IMG/VR virus record: IMGVR_UViG_2718218453_000003
Location: 1 to 39,971 of that record
Strand: one strand, 5' to 3'
Length of the DNA: 39,971 nucleotides
From: a virus
Lineage: Duplodnaviria; Heunggongvirae; Uroviricota; Caudoviricetes
In this document: piece by piece, positions 5,407-14,380 of the stretch
Position numbering within the stretch: position 1 is the first letter of the stretch
Layout: each line of letters begins with the position of its first letter
Translations under genes and position numbers: made by a program
The notes under the pieces: generated by a model
Seen by the model: the letters and a program-made list of their open reading frames with translations, nothing else
What the model was told of the DNA's origin: nothing
The model's database searches: none

Positions 5407-5459
5407 GGGCGGCAGAGCAGTCACGGAGTAAAACTGATACCGCCAAACGTCACCAGAAA
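5407..5459 (-). ncRNA. dicF: DicF small RNA (ftsZ-targeting sRNA of the dicB operon)
   Basis: Minus-strand sequence TTTCTGGTGACGTTTGGCGGTATCAGTTTTACTCCGTGACTGCTCTGCCGCCC followed by TTTTT matches recalled 53-nt DicF; lies between ydfC-like and dicB. Confidence 0.8.
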
Positions 5460-6626: not shown

Positions 6627-7265
6627 TTAAATATCTTGTTGAATTTTAAAGCATACGCCCAATATGCAAGATAGATCATCCAGCATAATTGAAGGGTAGC
6701 GAGGATTCGTGGGGACTAAAAGAATATCCGGCCCTTCTATCTCCAGTTTACGAATGACAGGTGTTGTGGTCCCTTTGGGTAAGGCAAGGACAATATTTCC
6801 TGGTTGTACGGTTCGATCGGGATCAATAAAAACTGTTGAACCATTTGGGATGGAAACTCCCCCACCAGATGTTGACATACTGTCACTCTCTAGAACAACT
6901 GCAAAGGTATTGACCGGGATTTCTCCGACAAGCTGCACACAAGAGGTTATTGAGGAATTTTTCATATAATCACTCCAGCTTGCTGCCTGCTGAAGTGATA
7001 GTAGCGGAACCGTTTTTATCGGCGGTAAAGATAGATCAAGCGAATCACCTGTATTTAACTCTCCTCCATTAAGAAGCCAATTTTCGTTTACTTTCAATAT
7101 TTTTGCCAGTGAACTTATGTAACGCGAGGACGGCGCTCCTCCACCGTTCATCCATTGACTTACGGAGCCTTTTGATGCGCCAGTGCCATTGACAAGGTCT
7201 TTGCCTTTCAGGTTTAGCGCATGCATACGTTGGGTTATGCGTTCAGATATAGTTTGCTTGCTCAT
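6627..7265 (-). CDS. CI-like prophage repressor (212 aa): N-terminal HTH, C-terminal S24 LexA-like autopeptidase domain
   Basis: N-terminal HTH-like region, C-terminal ESDSM serine motif and downstream Lys; divergent from cro-like gene; no SD, start codon inside operator. Confidence 0.9.
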   Translation of the reverse strand: MSKQTISERITQRMHALNLKGKDLVNGTGASKGSVSQWMNGGGAPSSRYISSLAKILKVNENWLLNGGELNTGDSLDLSLPPIKTVPLLSLQQAASWSDYMKNSSITSCVQLVGEIPVNTFAVVLESDSMSTSGGGVSIPNGSTVFIDPDRTVQPGNIVLALPKGTTTPVIRKLEIEGPDILLVPTNPRYPSIMLDDLSCILGVCFKIQQDI

Positions 7266-7328
7266 GTTTTGATTTTAAAACACAGATGGTTTTGTTTCTT
7301 GACTTTTTTTGGTTTTGATTATTAAACT
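7265..7328. promoter_or_regulatory. OR region: palindromic operator TGTTTTGATTTTAAAACA (7265..7282), rightward promoter PR (-35 TTGACT 7299..7304, -10 TAAACT 7323..7328) overlapped by a second operator-like site (7311..7328)
   Basis: Read directly; divergent cI and cro-like genes flank it. Confidence 0.55.
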
Positions 7329-7356
7329 TTTGACGTTCAGTTTTATGGAGCGACTC

Positions 7357-7587
7357 ATGAAAAAATCAGAAGTATTAGGCTATTTTGGCGGAGTTGTTAA
7401 AACAGCCGCAGCTCTAGGAACGTCAAAAACCACAGTCAGCATGTGGGGGGAAGAGGTTCCGTGGAAATGGGCGTTGCTAATTCAGGCAGTCACTGCCGGG
7501 GCGCTCAAATATGAGTTACACATACCGACGGTTGTCATTCCCGGTTCTGATCATAATCCGCCTTCTAACCAAGGGGGGGATTCATGA
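7357..7587 (+). CDS. Cro/DicC-like (YdaS-family) small HTH regulator (76 aa)
   Basis: Start at MKKSEVLGYFGG with GGAG RBS; divergent from repressor; YFG...W...VP pattern similar to recalled DicC. Confidence 0.8.
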   Translation: MKKSEVLGYFGGVVKTAAALGTSKTTVSMWGEEVPWKWALLIQAVTAGALKYELHIPTVVIPGSDHNPPSNQGGDS

Positions 7588-8009
7588 AAATCAAGCATGA
7601 ACACATCCGCATGGCGATGAATGCCTGGGCGCATCCGGACGGCGAAAAAGTACCGGCTGCGAAAATTACCAAAGCGTATTTCGAGCTGGGAATGACGTTC
7701 CCGGAACTGTATGACGACAGCCATCCGGAAGCCCTGGCTCGCAATACCCAGAAAATTTTCCGCTGGGTAGAGAAAGACACCCCTGATGCAGTTGAAAAAA
7801 TTCAGGCGTTGTTACCAGCGATCGAAAAGGCAATGCCACCTTTGCTGGTGGCCAGAATGCGCAGCCACAGTTCAGCTTATTTTCGGGAGCTGGTGGAGAC
7901 GCGGGAGCGACTGGTGAGAGACGCTGATGATTTTGTCGCAGTGGCAATCGCCGGTTTCAATCAGATGAACCGTGGTGGCCCGGCAGGAAATGCTGTGGCA
8001 GTACATTGA
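7584..8009 (+). CDS. YdaT-like protein (141 aa), CII-position regulator
   Basis: MKIKHEHIRMAMNAWAHPDGEKVPAAKITKAYFELGMTFPELYDD resembles recalled Rac YdaT; ATGA overlap with cro-like stop. Confidence 0.7.
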   Translation: MKIKHEHIRMAMNAWAHPDGEKVPAAKITKAYFELGMTFPELYDDSHPEALARNTQKIFRWVEKDTPDAVEKIQALLPAIEKAMPPLLVARMRSHSSAYFRELVETRERLVRDADDFVAVAIAGFNQMNRGGPAGNAVAVH

Positions 8010-8080: not shown

Positions 8081-9151
8081 ATGGCTAACGCCTGGCTCAG
8101 ATTATGGCATGACATGCCAAATGACCCTAAGTGGCGAACAATTGCCAGGGTGTCAGGGCAGCCAATTGCAACAGTGATGGCAGTGTATATCCACCTCCTG
8201 GTGAGCGCGTCACGAAATGTCACGCGAGGTCACATTGATGTCACGACAGAAGATTTAGCAAGTGCGCTCGACGTGACAGAAGAGGTAATTGATTCAATTT
8301 TGCAGACGATGCAGGGGCGGGTACTTGATGGTGATTTAATCACTGGATGGGAAAAACGCCAGGTGCTTAAAGAGGACAACGGCAATATTTCGCAAACCGC
8401 AAAATCTCCGGCAGAGCGCAAGAGGGCGCAGCGAGAGAGGGAAAGAAAGCGGGAACAAAATGGCGATTGTCACGGCGCGTCACGAAATGTCACGCACATG
8501 TCACGACGAGTCACGACAGATAAAGATACAGATAAAGATACAGATCAAGAAGATCAAAACACTATGGTCCATGGCGTAAAAAACGCCACGAACCAGGCAG
8601 GGGATGTTCAGACCGTCAATCCTGGTCAGCCAGCAGGCACGACACCGGAAGCCGATTCAGCGTATGCGCTGAAAGCCGATTCGGGCGCTGTGCAGCAGGT
8701 GATGACCCCAAGGCCGGAACAATCACACCAACTGCAGCAGCCTGAAGCCGATTTCGCCATTCAGCGGGAAGCCGATCGGGTAGTCCCGGAAAACACCGGG
8801 CTGTCTGTGGGACGAGTGGATTATCCGGATGTGTTCGAACAGGTCTGGCGGGAGTACCCGTTGCGTGCCGGAGCAAACCCGAAGAAATCCGCTTTCAGTG
8901 CATGGAAGGCCAGATTACGCGAGGGGGTGCCACCAGAGGCCATGCTGGATGGCGTGAGGCGTTACGCAAGATACTTGGCGGCTACCGGGAAAACGGGAAC
9001 GGAATTTGTTCAGCGAGCGACGACGTTTTTTGGACCGGACCGGAATTTTGAGAACCCCTGGTTGCTCCCGGTAAGCGGCACGAACAACCAGCGTTGTGTG
9101 AATCATATTTCTGAACCGGATAACGAAATTCCGCCGGGCTTCAGGGGGTAA
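8081..9151 (+). CDS. Replication initiation protein, lambda O-like role, YdaU-like N-terminus (356 aa from ATG 8081; GTG 8075 alternative)
   Basis: Position after cro/CII-like genes; gene body contains two iteron arrays and an AT-rich tract as in lambda O; GAGG RBS. Confidence 0.65.
   Translation: MANAWLRLWHDMPNDPKWRTIARVSGQPIATVMAVYIHLLVSASRNVTRGHIDVTTEDLASALDVTEEVIDSILQTMQGRVLDGDLITGWEKRQVLKEDNGNISQTAKSPAERKRAQRERERKREQNGDCHGASRNVTHMSRRVTTDKDTDKDTDQEDQNTMVHGVKNATNQAGDVQTVNPGQPAGTTPEADSAYALKADSGAVQQVMTPRPEQSHQLQQPEADFAIQREADRVVPENTGLSVGRVDYPDVFEQVWREYPLRAGANPKKSAFSAWKARLREGVPPEAMLDGVRRYARYLAATGKTGTEFVQRATTFFGPDRNFENPWLLPVSGTNNQRCVNHISEPDNEIPPGFRG
8210..8246. repeat. Iteron-like array 1: GTCACG/GTCACA at 8210, 8220, 8230, 8241 (10-11 bp phasing) inside the O-like gene
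   Basis: Direct repeats read in sequence. Confidence 0.6.
8469..8560. repeat. Iteron-like array 2: five GTCACG repeats at 8469, 8479, 8489, 8500, 8510 followed by AT-rich tandem GATAAAGATACA tract; candidate ori
   Basis: Direct repeats at helical periodicity followed by AT-rich tract. Confidence 0.6.
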
Positions 9152-9191
9152 GTGTTAATTTCTGGTCATGAGGTAATTTTCAGGAGGGCTT

Positions 9192-9428
9192 GTGGCAAAA
9201 GTTTTTACACAAGAAGAGCGGGAAAAAATTAAAGGACAGGTTGTTGAACTCGTACGCCAGAGTGGGCGCGAGACGTTACGACAACTGGAAACTAAAACTG
9301 GGGCAACAAGATATCTGATGAGCGAGATTAATTATCAGGAAGGGTATGAAACGGCGGGGCAAGCAAAACCAGTGGCATGGCGATATCGCTACGTGAAAAA
9401 AGGCGTTACGGACTTTCAGGGGAAGTAG
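9192..9428 (+). CDS. Hypothetical protein (78 aa, GTG start); reading frame continues past an in-frame TAG to 9632
   Basis: AGGAGG upstream of GTG; protein-like sequence continues in frame after the TAG at 9426..9428. Confidence 0.4.
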   Translation: MAKVFTQEEREKIKGQVVELVRQSGRETLRQLETKTGATRYLMSEINYQEGYETAGQAKPVAWRYRYVKKGVTDFQGK

Positions 9429-9802
9429 TGGTCTGGTGACTGGAAATATGTACCGAAAAAAGAGGATTGTAACGATAGGCCGAACTATGAAATTCAGGCC
9501 TTATTCACTGCCCCGCCAGTCCCGGTTACATCAGAAGAACTGGTTAAAGCTGTGCACTTTTATGAACAACTAAAACGCGAAAATCCACCAGCATCCGGAA
9601 ACCTGATTACAGATTCCCAGATAAGGCAATGAGCTACCTGGCGCAGAACGGGCTGATAAGTATGGGGAATGTTTTACGATGAATATTTAGACTAAAGAGT
9701 TTGTAACGCTATGTAAGTGATTTTTTCTGGTTTAGATATTTATATGTCCGGCCAAATTGAGGTGTGTTTAAATGTAATTGCACATTGATTGTAGGAGGAA
9801 TA

Positions 9803-9982
9803 ATGAAAAACGCATTGCAGTTTTTGTTTGTTGCGTTTTGGTTGTTCGTATCATGTATGCCCATCATCTTCACAGCAAGGTATATGGAAAAAGTTGATGT
9901 TTTGATATTAATATTTGGATATATAAATGCCCTTTTTTTAGGGGTGTTCATGGCGGTCATGTGCATTGAATACTGGCGGTAA
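9803..9982 (+). CDS. Small hydrophobic membrane protein (59 aa, two predicted TM segments) in AT-rich segment
   Basis: AGGAGG RBS 5 nt upstream of ATG; MKNALQFLFVAFWLFVSCMPIIFTARYMEKVDVLILIFGYINALFLGVFMAVMCIEYWR. Confidence 0.55.
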   Translation: MKNALQFLFVAFWLFVSCMPIIFTARYMEKVDVLILIFGYINALFLGVFMAVMCIEYWR

Positions 9983-10037
9983 ATACAGCGAACGCCATTG
10001 GTTTAGTTGGATATTTACTGTGCCGGACAAAAACGGT

Positions 10038-10065: not shown

Positions 10066-10124
10066 GACTGCGGGTGCTTGAGGCTATCTGTCTCAGGCAT
10101 GAACACCAAAGGCAGATAGAGAAA

Positions 10125-10204
10125 AGCCCCAGTTAACATTACGCGTCCTGCAAGACGCTTAACATTAATCTGAGGCTCAATCTATGAACGGCAAATCTAG
10201 GTTA
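10125..10204 (-). ncRNA. Putative Sok-like antisense RNA region (candidate promoter -35 TTGCCT 10227..10222, -10 TAACCT 10204..10199) overlapping the mok SD and start
   Basis: Promoter-like hexamers with 17-nt spacer antisense to the mok initiation region; boundaries not determined. Confidence 0.3.
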
Positions 10205-10396
10205 GCCTCTTACGTGCCGAAAGGCAAGGAGAAGCAGGCTATGAAGCAGCAAAAGGCGATGTTAATCGCCCTGATCGTCATCTGTTTAACCGTCATAGTG
10301 ACGGCACTGGTAACGAGGAAAGACCTCTGCGAGGTACGAATCCGAACCGGCCAGACGGAGGTCGCTGTCTTCACAGCTTACGAACCTGAGGAGTAA
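10184..10396 (+). CDS. mok: Mok-like reading frame (70 aa), in-frame N-terminal extension of hok
   Basis: ATG with GAGG RBS; same-frame arrangement as recalled mokC/hokC. Confidence 0.55.
   Translation: MNGKSRLASYVPKGKEKQAMKQQKAMLIALIVICLTVIVTALVTRKDLCEVRIRTGQTEVAVFTAYEPEE
10241..10396 (+). CDS. hok: Hok/Gef-family type I toxin (51 aa), closest to recalled HokD/RelF
   Basis: MKQQKAMLIALIVICLTVIVTALVTRKDLCEVRIRTGQTEVAVFTAYEPEE; TM helix plus conserved RKDLCEV...TGQTEVAVF core. Confidence 0.85.
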   Translation: MKQQKAMLIALIVICLTVIVTALVTRKDLCEVRIRTGQTEVAVFTAYEPEE

Positions 10397-13241: not shown

Positions 13242-13317
13242 GGCCCTTTAGCTCAGTGGTGAGAGCGAGCGACTCATAATCGCCAGGTCGCTGGTTCAAA
13301 TCCAGCAAGGGCCACCA
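13242..13317 (+). tRNA. tRNA with CAT anticodon, ileX/ileZ-like (tRNA-Ile2, formally Met by anticodon), 76 nt with CCA
   Basis: Cloverleaf checked by hand: acceptor GGCCCTT/AAGGGCC, D-stem GCTC/GAGC, T-arm GCTGG-TTCAAAT-CCAGC, anticodon loop CTCATAA. Confidence 0.85.
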
Positions 13318-13417: not shown

Positions 13418-13491
13418 GCGTTGTTAGCTCAGCCGGACAGAGCAATTGCCTTCTAAGCAATCGGTCACTGGTTCGAATCCAGTACAGCGCG
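13418..13491 (+). tRNA. tRNA-Arg (anticodon TCT), 74 nt, no encoded CCA
   Basis: Cloverleaf checked by hand: acceptor GCGTTGT/ACAGCGC, anticodon stem ATTGC/GCAAT, loop CTTCTAA, T-arm ACTGG-TTCGAAT-CCAGT. Confidence 0.85.
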
Positions 13492-14124: not shown

Positions 14125-14348
14125 GCCGGGTATCAGTTAGCGGGAGAAATTTTTAAATACTTCACAATTCAGGCGGTTGACTGTTGTCTGGTTTGCGGGG
14201 AGTTTGTTAAAAGAAACTGGCATGGTGAATCCCCCTGTGCGGAGGGGCAATCAGCGAGTAGGTATATGGGATAATCGCGAATTCAGGTGCTGGTACTGAA
14301 TTCACCGGGAGGCACCCGGCACCATGCAATGGCACATAGCGCCACTCT

Positions 14349-14380
14349 CCAGCCCCTCTCCGGAGGGGCTGTTTATATTG
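14349..14380 (+). terminator. Rho-independent terminator (CAGCCCCTC-TCCG-GAGGGGCTG plus TTTATATTGATTTT)
   Basis: 9-bp GC stem, 4-nt loop, T-rich tail. Confidence 0.6.

Follow-up and report, generated by a model that had tools for sequence, protein, structure and literature searches.

How does a lambdoid prophage load a helicase at its replication origin when its initiator gene is followed by no gene for a helicase loader? This question is raised by the IMG/VR virus record IMGVR_UViG_2718218453_000003, of which positions 1–39,971 were analyzed as one stretch of 39,971 bp (hereafter the window), which contains most of a Qin/Rac-like lambdoid prophage of Escherichia coli. The gene concerned (8081–9151, plus strand; ATG at 8081) was taken from the list of open reading frames (ORFs) and from its match to the protein family PHROG 3729. 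It encodes a protein of 356 amino acids (aa), whose homologues begin MANAWLRLW, and which we call the organizer after its NCBI name, 'phage replisome organizer'. Two arrays of phased repeats, an AT-rich tract and an inverted repeat lie inside the organizer gene and are conserved among relatives; the loader gene of those relatives has been lost, and the loaderless form is widespread in E. coli. From these observations we infer that the protein would act as a replisome-organizer-type initiator with the origin in its own gene, and that host DnaC-DnaB would be recruited through a DnaT-like tail; taken jointly, we consider these two claims likely.

Phased iterons inside the organizer gene

The GTCACG motif is concentrated in two arrays on the plus strand. 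In array 1 (8209–8245), the copies at 8209, 8219 and 8240 are exact and the one at 8229 differs by a single base (GTCACA), with spacings of 10, 10 and 11 bp; array 2 (8469–8515) contains five exact copies at 8469, 8479, 8489, 8500 and 8510, with spacings of 10, 10, 11 and 10 bp. An initial annotation of this DNA had counted four and five copies at 10–11 bp phasing, which is right if the GTCACA variant is included in array 1, and had placed the arrays about 250 bp apart, against a measured 260 bp from start to start (gap, 223 bp). The search for GTCACG sites also found one inverted core at 8272–8277 on the minus strand (CGTGAC on the plus strand). Within 307 bp fall 9 of the 25 GTCACG sites of the window, where 0.12–0.13 would be expected (Poisson P(≥9) ~2e-14), and the 19-mer GCGTCACGAAATGTCACGC is identical in both arrays (8207–8225 and 8477–8495). 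Array 1 encodes residues 43–55, a helix end and a surface loop of the protein, and array 2 lies in the region coding for its disordered linker.

Array 2 directly abuts the AT-rich tandem tract that the initial annotation had described. This tract (8516–8560), the presumed DNA-unwinding element (DUE), is composed of three copies of ACAGATAAAGAT (8516–8550) followed by GAAGATCAAAAC. GC content in a 60-bp profile falls to 0.37–0.38 at the tract versus 0.52–0.62 on the flanks, and the lowest-GC 40-mer of the organizer gene (25% GC) begins at 8520. The inverted repeat TGGTCCATGGCG-N7-CGCCACGAACCA (8565–8595; 12/13 bp) is located directly to the right of the tract, the position at which ori-lambda also has a palindrome. 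Its sequence codes for the first residues of the conserved C-module (NTMVHGVKNATN) and overlaps the peptide NT(L/M)VHGxK. All relatives with the same C-module keep it, including Shigella phage 75/02 Stx with its unrelated N-terminal domain (N-domain); at one arm position the two sides change together (C-G in 75/02 Stx, T-A in four others). The repeat may belong to the origin or reflect a mere coding constraint. Scans for promoters and terminators performed no better than on shuffled sequences, the minus-strand 'terminator' at 8565–8595 being the conserved inverted repeat itself. A scan for DnaA boxes found none near the arrays and one weak site at 9203, with a window total equal to the chance expectation. 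The locus therefore has phased direct repeats, an adjoining AT-rich element and an initiator in cis, as in iteron-type theta origins.

Repeats inside a gene could merely encode a repeated or conserved peptide, without any role as DNA, as would suit the position of array 1 within a conserved protein segment (ASRNVTRGHIDVTT) and the 12-bp AT-rich repeat, which is in frame and encodes DKDT repeats. However, the GTCACG copies use all three reading frames at their 10–11 bp spacing (frames 1, 2, 0, 2 and 0 in array 2) and are translated, depending on frame, as VT, (G/C)H or SR; a C-to-A change in the iteron becomes H-to-N in the protein. To compare synonymous sites, four GTCACG-type genes (from E. 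coli, Aeromonas and Pseudomonas phages, thus three host genera, plus a metagenomic relative) were aligned by codon, and third positions were scored wherever all four genes encode the same amino acid. These positions are invariant in 9 of 10 cases inside the array-1 motifs and in 4 of 52 outside them (Fisher p = 3e-7). Moreover, the linker peptides differ among the E. coli, Aeromonas and Pseudomonas versions while the GTCACG motif is kept in hosts of different GC content, and divergent relatives change the motif in both arrays at once. Because the copies occupy three frames, their synonymous sites are frozen and the two arrays switch motif together, the sequences indicate that the repeats are DNA elements under selection and not a peptide repeat, and we regard a purely coding origin of the repeats as highly improbable. 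The initial annotation would have given up its proposal for a protein with no initiator homology and repeats that only encode a peptide; what was found instead is an initiator-family protein and repeats that are DNA elements. The iterons within this gene are a clear case of overlapping codes.

The motif also covaries with the N-domain. GTCACG iterons occur where the N-domain is 74–77% identical to that of the window; in three relatives with N-domains 53–67% identical (P0094, P0108 and P0084) the motif of both arrays is GTAACG; and the GCGTTCG repeats of a spring-water phage and the two pairs of AGGGGCT repeats of 75/02 Stx go with N-domains that are more distant or unrelated. Motif type tracks the similarity of the N-domain and not that of the adjacent YdaT gene. 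With the N-terminal 160 aa as query, tblastn detected relatives of ~70% identity in the Aeromonas phage pAEv1818 and several phages of Pseudomonas aeruginosa. pAEv1818 and Pseudomonas phage Marin have both arrays and the AT tract at the same positions, and the C-terminal halves of their proteins are unrelated. In every relative, array 2 is followed by a tract of 17–35% GC, the equivalent being (GATAAA)n. The window and its three GTCACG-type relatives each have an inverted copy of the core at one or both of gene positions 192 (P0042 and Marin) and 202 (P0042 and the Aeromonas phage). In-frame insertions or deletions (indels) add or remove iterons among close E. coli variants (e.g., NVT-TCHGVSR-RGH), whose indels are located in the linker region, and 7-aa insertions at the array-1 loop of relatives read as extra iterons. 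The same kind of in-frame copy variation is described for the O genes of Stx phages, with six iterons (PMC7466680).

Three further observations concern these elements. In Marin, a P. aeruginosa phage, the annotation splits the organizer (L005, 3501–4401) into two short ORFs of 187 and 116 aa, followed by a primase-helicase, which indicates that the origin-binding module has moved between very different hosts and helicase systems. In a 302-aa E. coli variant, P0020, the stretch from the first array-2 iterons to the PEAD repeats of the linker is deleted, and with it the inverted repeat, the AT tract and most of array 2, which probably makes this prophage copy origin-dead. Conservation of the helical phase between the arrays was considered as well and is not claimed: the inter-array distance is 228–251 bp (~22–24 turns) in six relatives and 183 bp in P0084, which is not significant with so few independent lineages.

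The organizer protein and its candidate origin

The domain search that the initial annotation had called for gave a full-length match to PHROG 3729, 'replication initiation protein' (E = 1e-255; residues 1–356 against profile positions 1–356), and nothing in Pfam at E ≤ 0.01 for the whole protein. The 98%-identity cluster of the protein has 5786 members. At E ≤ 0.001, an exhaustive homologue search returned 6108 representative clusters, the majority with similarity confined to the N-domain, and a search with the C-terminal domain (C-domain) alone returned mainly fragments. AlphaFold modeled with confidence a winged-helix N-domain (aa 1–90; 8081–8350) of DnaD-NTD-like fold, the presumed iteron-binding domain, in which the loop encoded by array 1 (aa 47–51) has a predicted local distance difference test score (pLDDT) below 50. 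Even at E ≤ 10 the N-domain matched only PF09681 and HTH_Crp_2 in Pfam, both sub-threshold; the match to PF09681 (Phage_rep_org_N, the SPP1 G38P family) is full-length and lies below the gathering threshold. Foldseek with the full model against the PDB gave weak winged-helix regulators, with a best E of 0.75. The disordered linker (aa 130–243; 8468–8809; pLDDT below 50) carries array 2, the AT tract, the inverted repeat and a set of GAAGCCGAT repeats. It is followed by a confidently modeled small helical C-core (aa 244–333; 8810–9079) with the motif TGTEFVQRAxTFFGPDRNFE and by a flexible C-terminal tail, ISEPDNEIPPGFRG (aa 343–356; 9107–9148), which resembles the tail of host DnaT and is proposed to be a loader-docking peptide.

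The GAAGCCGAT (xAD) repeats of the linker (PEAD, KAD, PEAD and READ; 8645–8776) are in frame, with spacings of 24, 72 and 24 bp, and E. coli variants show 8- and 32-aa deletions among them. Spaced in multiples of 3, they are, unlike the iterons, consistent with a peptide-level repeat prone to slippage.

Since no lambda O family was matched and the N-domain has a DnaD-NTD-like fold, the 356-aa protein is a functional analogue of lambda O and not a homologue. The in-gene origin of lambda O type that the initial annotation had proposed thus stood in its layout, reading frames, synonymous conservation, covariation and initiator family, but not in the homology of the protein to O, nor in array 1, which has no lambda counterpart. 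Seven phage records carry the organizer gene under varied names, 'DNA replication protein O', 'Primosomal protein I', 'DNA-binding protein' and 'replisome organiser' (variation seen in ON470583, LR597642, KF766125 and OL964755). The first two overstate homology: the 14–24-residue tail alone is DnaT-like, and nothing is lambda-O-like.

These features suggest how the origin might work. The N-domain would bind the core (T)GTCACG(M), presented every 10–11 bp on one face of the helix in both arrays; such binding is predicted from the covariation and from the conservation of synonymous sites. The 260-bp interval would then be wrapped or looped, and supercoil-dependent melting would follow at the AT tract (8516–8560). 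Array 1, in a tolerant surface loop of the DNA-binding domain, would most probably help to form the wrapped or looped nucleoprotein complex, or may serve copy control, whereas array 2, in linker-coding DNA, would be free to vary in copy number. Binding, wrapping and melting are proposed from the architecture of the sequence, from the covariation and by comparison with lambda and SPP1, and the roles assigned to the arrays and to melting draw on the lambda O-some, SPP1 G38P/oriL and iteron plasmids.

The same arrays might instead bind the organizer for regulation, that is autorepression, handcuffing copy control or incompatibility/exclusion, with initiation elsewhere. Array 1 in particular invites this explanation, since the two arrays are separated, only one of them adjoins the AT tract, and lambda has nothing like the other. 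A separate control array also occurs in iteron plasmids such as P1. Nevertheless, array 2 together with the AT tract and the inverted repeat is the canonical origin signature of lambda and SPP1 (PMC7466680, PMC5737612), no other iteron or AT-rich candidate was seen in the early region, and the loss of array 2 and the AT tract in P0020 looks like decay, not design. We therefore hold a purely regulatory role to be improbable and prefer an origin within the organizer gene.

Lost loader gene and retained DnaT-like tail

The initial annotation had noted that no P-like or DnaC-like gene follows the organizer gene. No P-like, DnaC-like, helicase or primase homologue was found there or anywhere else in the 40-kb window, in which tblastn searches with proteins of three types from relatives (DnaC-like, lambda-P-like and primase-helicase) gave nothing below E = 0.8. 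The next gene, which belongs to the DUF977 family, begins after a 40-bp junction (9152–9191), the site at which relatives have a DnaC-like loader gene. Five full-length relatives (46–79% identity; P0022, P0042, P0084, P0094 and P0108) have an IstB/DnaC-like AAA+ gene directly downstream of the organizer gene, as do 75/02 Stx and the Aeromonas phage, which gives seven of the relatives examined singly with a loader at the junction position (L002, L004, L007, L008, L010, L011 and L018). A species scan with one genome per species yielded 20 loci with the same C-core: the next gene is DnaC-like in 15, a primase-helicase in 2 and unclassified in 2, and only the locus of Shigella flexneri, identical to the window, has DUF977 next and no loader. 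Because relatives with the same C-domain nearly always have a loader or helicase gene directly downstream, the comparison indicates that the loader gene was lost in this lineage, which is a derived form of an organizer-plus-DnaC module.

The loaderless form is common. The junction of organizer and DUF977 genes occurs in 1556 of 5426 complete E. coli genomes (~29%), and phages Tritos and Evi likewise have no loader gene after the organizer gene. Evi, which is described as a coliphage isolate obtained from infant stool (PMC10910852), has the module at 97.6% identity, and neither a loader nor a helicase homologue was found in its whole 40-kb genome. Salmonella has a second loaderless lineage, whose organizer ends in the same tail and in which an unrelated small helix-turn-helix (HTH) protein replaces DUF977. 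Given the 1556 genomes and the isolated phage, the loaderless form is a working, widespread configuration and not a local defect. The remodeled replication module of the initial annotation was thus borne out as regards the loss of the loader relative to relatives; the change is lineage-wide and working, not local, and the amber-interrupted ORF and AT-rich 'cargo' that the annotation had linked to it are incidental. In a 2025 survey of Enterobacterales lambdoid phages (Genome Res, PMC12315714), 34 of 314 have an O-type gene alone, without helicase or loader; they are described there as unstudied, and their replication as 'not yet understood'. A single replication gene without helicase or loader is what both the window and the complete Evi genome contain.

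Two explanations would supply the missing loader from another source. The DUF977 protein may have taken over its role, being always the next gene in loaderless genomes. Yet DUF977 also follows the DnaC-like gene in two loader-bearing loci (L021 and L023), encodes a small winged-helix-type protein without an ATPase domain, is a pseudogene in the window and is absent from the Salmonella locus with its HTH protein; such a takeover is very hard to credit. Alternatively, the module may not be self-sufficient and may need either a loader that other prophages of the same cell provide in trans or a regional or recombination-dependent mode of replication. Several lambdoid prophages with loaders of DnaC or P type are often present in one E. 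coli genome (PMC2669165), the organizer region is matched at a median of 2 places per genome, the window prophage has at least one pseudogene, and the O-only phages have, as said, been left unstudied. This dependence is nevertheless rather unlikely in view of the Evi genome, the presence of the junction in 29% of complete E. coli genomes, the second loaderless lineage with the same tail in Salmonella, and a tail and C-core that remain intact across the loaderless variants. We thus favor a module that initiates with the helpers of its host.

The tail points to a possible helper. Over its last 14–24 residues (VNHISEPDNEIPPGFRG), the organizer matches the C-terminal tail of E. coli DnaT (VNTVSEPDSQIPPGFRG). 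The sole NCBIfam match of the protein is to DnaT NF002770, with the tail at positions 156–179 (E = 6.7e-4), and the tail (...SEPDxxIPPGFRG) also matches the DnaT chains 6aep, 2ru8 and 9zbt of the PDB (E = 6e-4 to 0.014). The likeness does not extend to the whole protein, which scores 19.3 bits against an equivalog cut-off of 201 and has a winged-helix domain as its N-terminal half. PF17948, the three-helix single-stranded DNA (ssDNA)-binding domain of DnaT, was matched neither in the window protein nor in any of 19 C-domain relatives; it is matched in sister variants with the same N-domain and iterons (P0070, E = 3e-17; an Aeromonas protein, E = 1.3e-16).

Tail type corresponds to the gene downstream. 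IPxGFRG or PVSGF tails pair with DnaC-type loader genes, EPLDxEE tails with lambda-P-type loaders (P0098 from O157 and P0115 from Yersinia) and NVEPWP tails with primase-helicases, with no mismatch in ~25 loci (among L002, L004, L007–L011 and L015–L038) that are not phylogenetically independent. In host cells, dnaT lies directly upstream of dnaC in one operon (PMC5778457), and how DnaT recruits DnaB-DnaC is an open question (PMC13377028). Since the loader gene was cleanly deleted and yet the DnaT-like tail ISEPDNEIPPGFRG was kept, host DnaC-DnaB is most likely recruited through this tail, although this is the least secure step of the model. The C-core and tail, on the long flexible linker, would deliver host DnaB-DnaC to the bubble at the AT tract, a step suggested by the correlation of tail and loader; in nearly all relatives, they would hand over to the loader encoded immediately downstream. 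A more general proposal, that the peptide (S/P)xPDxxIPxGFRG is a portable docking motif for DnaC-family loaders common to host DnaT and phage organizers, is put forward only tentatively, and we rate it as possible but on balance doubtful.

The helicase could also arrive through the host PriA-PriB-DnaT restart primosome, with the tail docking PriA or another partner of DnaT at the opened origin. The tail is common to the organizer and DnaT, the C-terminal domain of DnaT touches PriA via a hydrophobic interface (PMC13377028), and some variants with the same N-domain have the full ssDNA-binding domain PF17948. Nonetheless, GFRG-type tails pair specifically with DnaC-type loaders and are replaced when the partner is of lambda-P type or a primase-helicase, which argues that the loader itself is the partner, and the window protein by its sequence has no three-helix DNA-binding domain. 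We consider the primosome route unlikely and retain direct recruitment of DnaC-DnaB by the tail as the preferred reading.

Several points weigh against the proposed origin and recruitment. The literature searched contains no experiment on origin firing here or on binding of the protein to GTCACG. Array 1, without an equivalent in lambda, could serve regulation instead of belonging to the origin. The correlation of tail and loader comes from few independent lineages with sequences related to one another. The DnaT tail is reported only to aid cooperative ssDNA binding (PMC4132743), and recruitment of DnaB/DnaC has been proposed for the N-terminal domain of DnaT (PMC13377028), which the window protein does not have. 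The window prophage has a DUF977 pseudogene and may have other defects. The lack of a DnaA box near the arrays we regard as neutral; the lambda origin is not known to need a DnaA box for its opening.

An origin inside an initiator gene is textbook biology, and this origin is in itself ordinary; the noteworthy part is the loaderless state combined with a DnaT-like tail. The two arrays, the DUE and the inverted repeat provide a concrete candidate origin for a very common E. coli prophage replication module, whose junction is found in ~29% of complete E. coli genomes and for which our literature search found no published origin and no paper on the iterons of the organizer family. As a derived, loader-less form of an organizer-plus-DnaC module, the lineage bears on the unexplained 'O-only' phages (PMC12315714), and the match of tail and loader together with the identity of the tail to that of DnaT gives a specific hypothesis of helicase recruitment, which bears on how DnaT recruits DnaB-DnaC (PMC13377028). 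If the tail peptide is indeed a portable docking motif for DnaC-family loaders, loaderless lambdoid phages would initiate by DnaT mimicry, with the origin-bound organizer presenting its tail to host DnaC-DnaB. This would explain the replication of O-only lambdoid phages, and it would suggest that the restart primosome is coupled to DnaB-DnaC by the tail or C-terminal region of DnaT and not by its N-terminal domain.

Neighboring genes and comparison with known systems

The early-right region of the prophage begins with a LexA/S24-type repressor gene on the minus strand (6627–7265), followed in the early-right operon by a P22-Cro-like gene (7309–7587), a YdaT-like gene (7584–8009) and the organizer gene. 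A 1.6-kb piece containing the organizer gene and its downstream sequence is 99.9% identical to the chromosome of strain 4012, in a dicB-ydfC-ydfB neighborhood. The DUF977 (YdaW/'LygF'-like) pseudogene (9192–9632, plus strand) is a neighbor of the origin module and not part of it. It corresponds to the amber-interrupted ORF of the initial annotation, with an in-frame TAG at 9426–9428; Pfam DUF977 matches aa 1–41, PHROG 660 matches both halves, and PGAP labels the gene 'internal stop' in strain 4012. The gene resembles the DUF977 genes of Tritos and Evi for the first ~173 nt only and is PHROG 660-like thereafter, a mosaic junction.

An AT-rich island (9640–10000; GC 0.22–0.37) lies between the pseudogene and sok/hokD and contains a hydrophobic 72-aa ORF (9764–9982) without a Pfam match. 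The order continues with sok/hokD and then DUF968, RusA and Q. Rfam matches at gathering score comprise the sok antitoxin RNA (10072–10246, plus strand), overlapping hokD (10184–10396), the DicF small RNA (sRNA; 5407–5458, minus strand), the sRNA STnc100 (14191–14380, plus strand) and three tRNA genes (892–978, 13242–13314 and 13418–13491), two of them downstream of Q.

Among known systems, lambda is closest in layout. As in lambda O/ori-lambda, the origin would lie inside the initiator gene, in the part coding for the linker between domains; direct repeats of the initiator site adjoin an AT-rich tract in lambda and Stx-phage origins, and iteron copy number varies between relatives as in-frame protein indels (both PMC7466680); and the gene is located downstream of cro and a cII/YdaT-like gene. 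In contrast to lambda, the organizer has no homology to O (no O family for the N-domain at E ≤ 10), its iteron is a 6–8 bp core at 10–11 bp spacing and not a 19-bp inverted repeat, an extra array lies within the region coding for the DNA-binding domain, and no P gene comes next.

The closest described type is the replisome organizer with oriL in its own gene (PMC5737612). Like SPP1 G38P, the organizer is an initiator without an AAA+ domain, with repeated boxes and an AT-rich DUE in its own gene (PMC5737612), and it shares the DnaD-NTD-like winged helix and the name 'replisome organizer' (NCBI and one phage record); the match of its N-domain to PF09681 is full-length but below the gathering threshold. 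SPP1 encodes the loader G39P and the helicase G40P, whereas the window encodes neither, and the C-terminal part of the organizer differs from that of G38P, with its DnaT-like tail.

E. coli DnaT shares the C-terminal tail with the organizer, its dnaT-dnaC operon recalls the organizer gene followed by a dnaC-like gene in the relatives (PMC5778457), and sister organizer variants with the same N-domain carry PF17948. Unlike DnaT, the window protein has no N-terminal oligomerization domain and, by sequence, no PF17948 domain, and it is a putative sequence-specific origin binder, while DnaT is an adaptor of fork restart. The O-only lambdoid modules (PMC12315714) likewise have a single replication gene and no helicase or loader, but the example given in that paper, LLS, is described as a lambda O homologue.

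Iteron theta plasmids (pSC101 RepA, R6K pi, RK2 TrfA and P1 RepA) use host DnaC-DnaB. The window resembles them, and RepA_N initiators (PDB 4pta), in its helically phased iterons beside an AT-rich DUE with the initiator in cis, in the two separated sets of iterons that some plasmids have, and, as we propose for the window, in the recruitment of host helicase and loader without a loader encoded by the element. It differs from them in that its iterons lie inside coding sequence, no DnaA box is near, the element is a lambdoid phage, and the motif proposed for recruitment is a DnaT-like tail.

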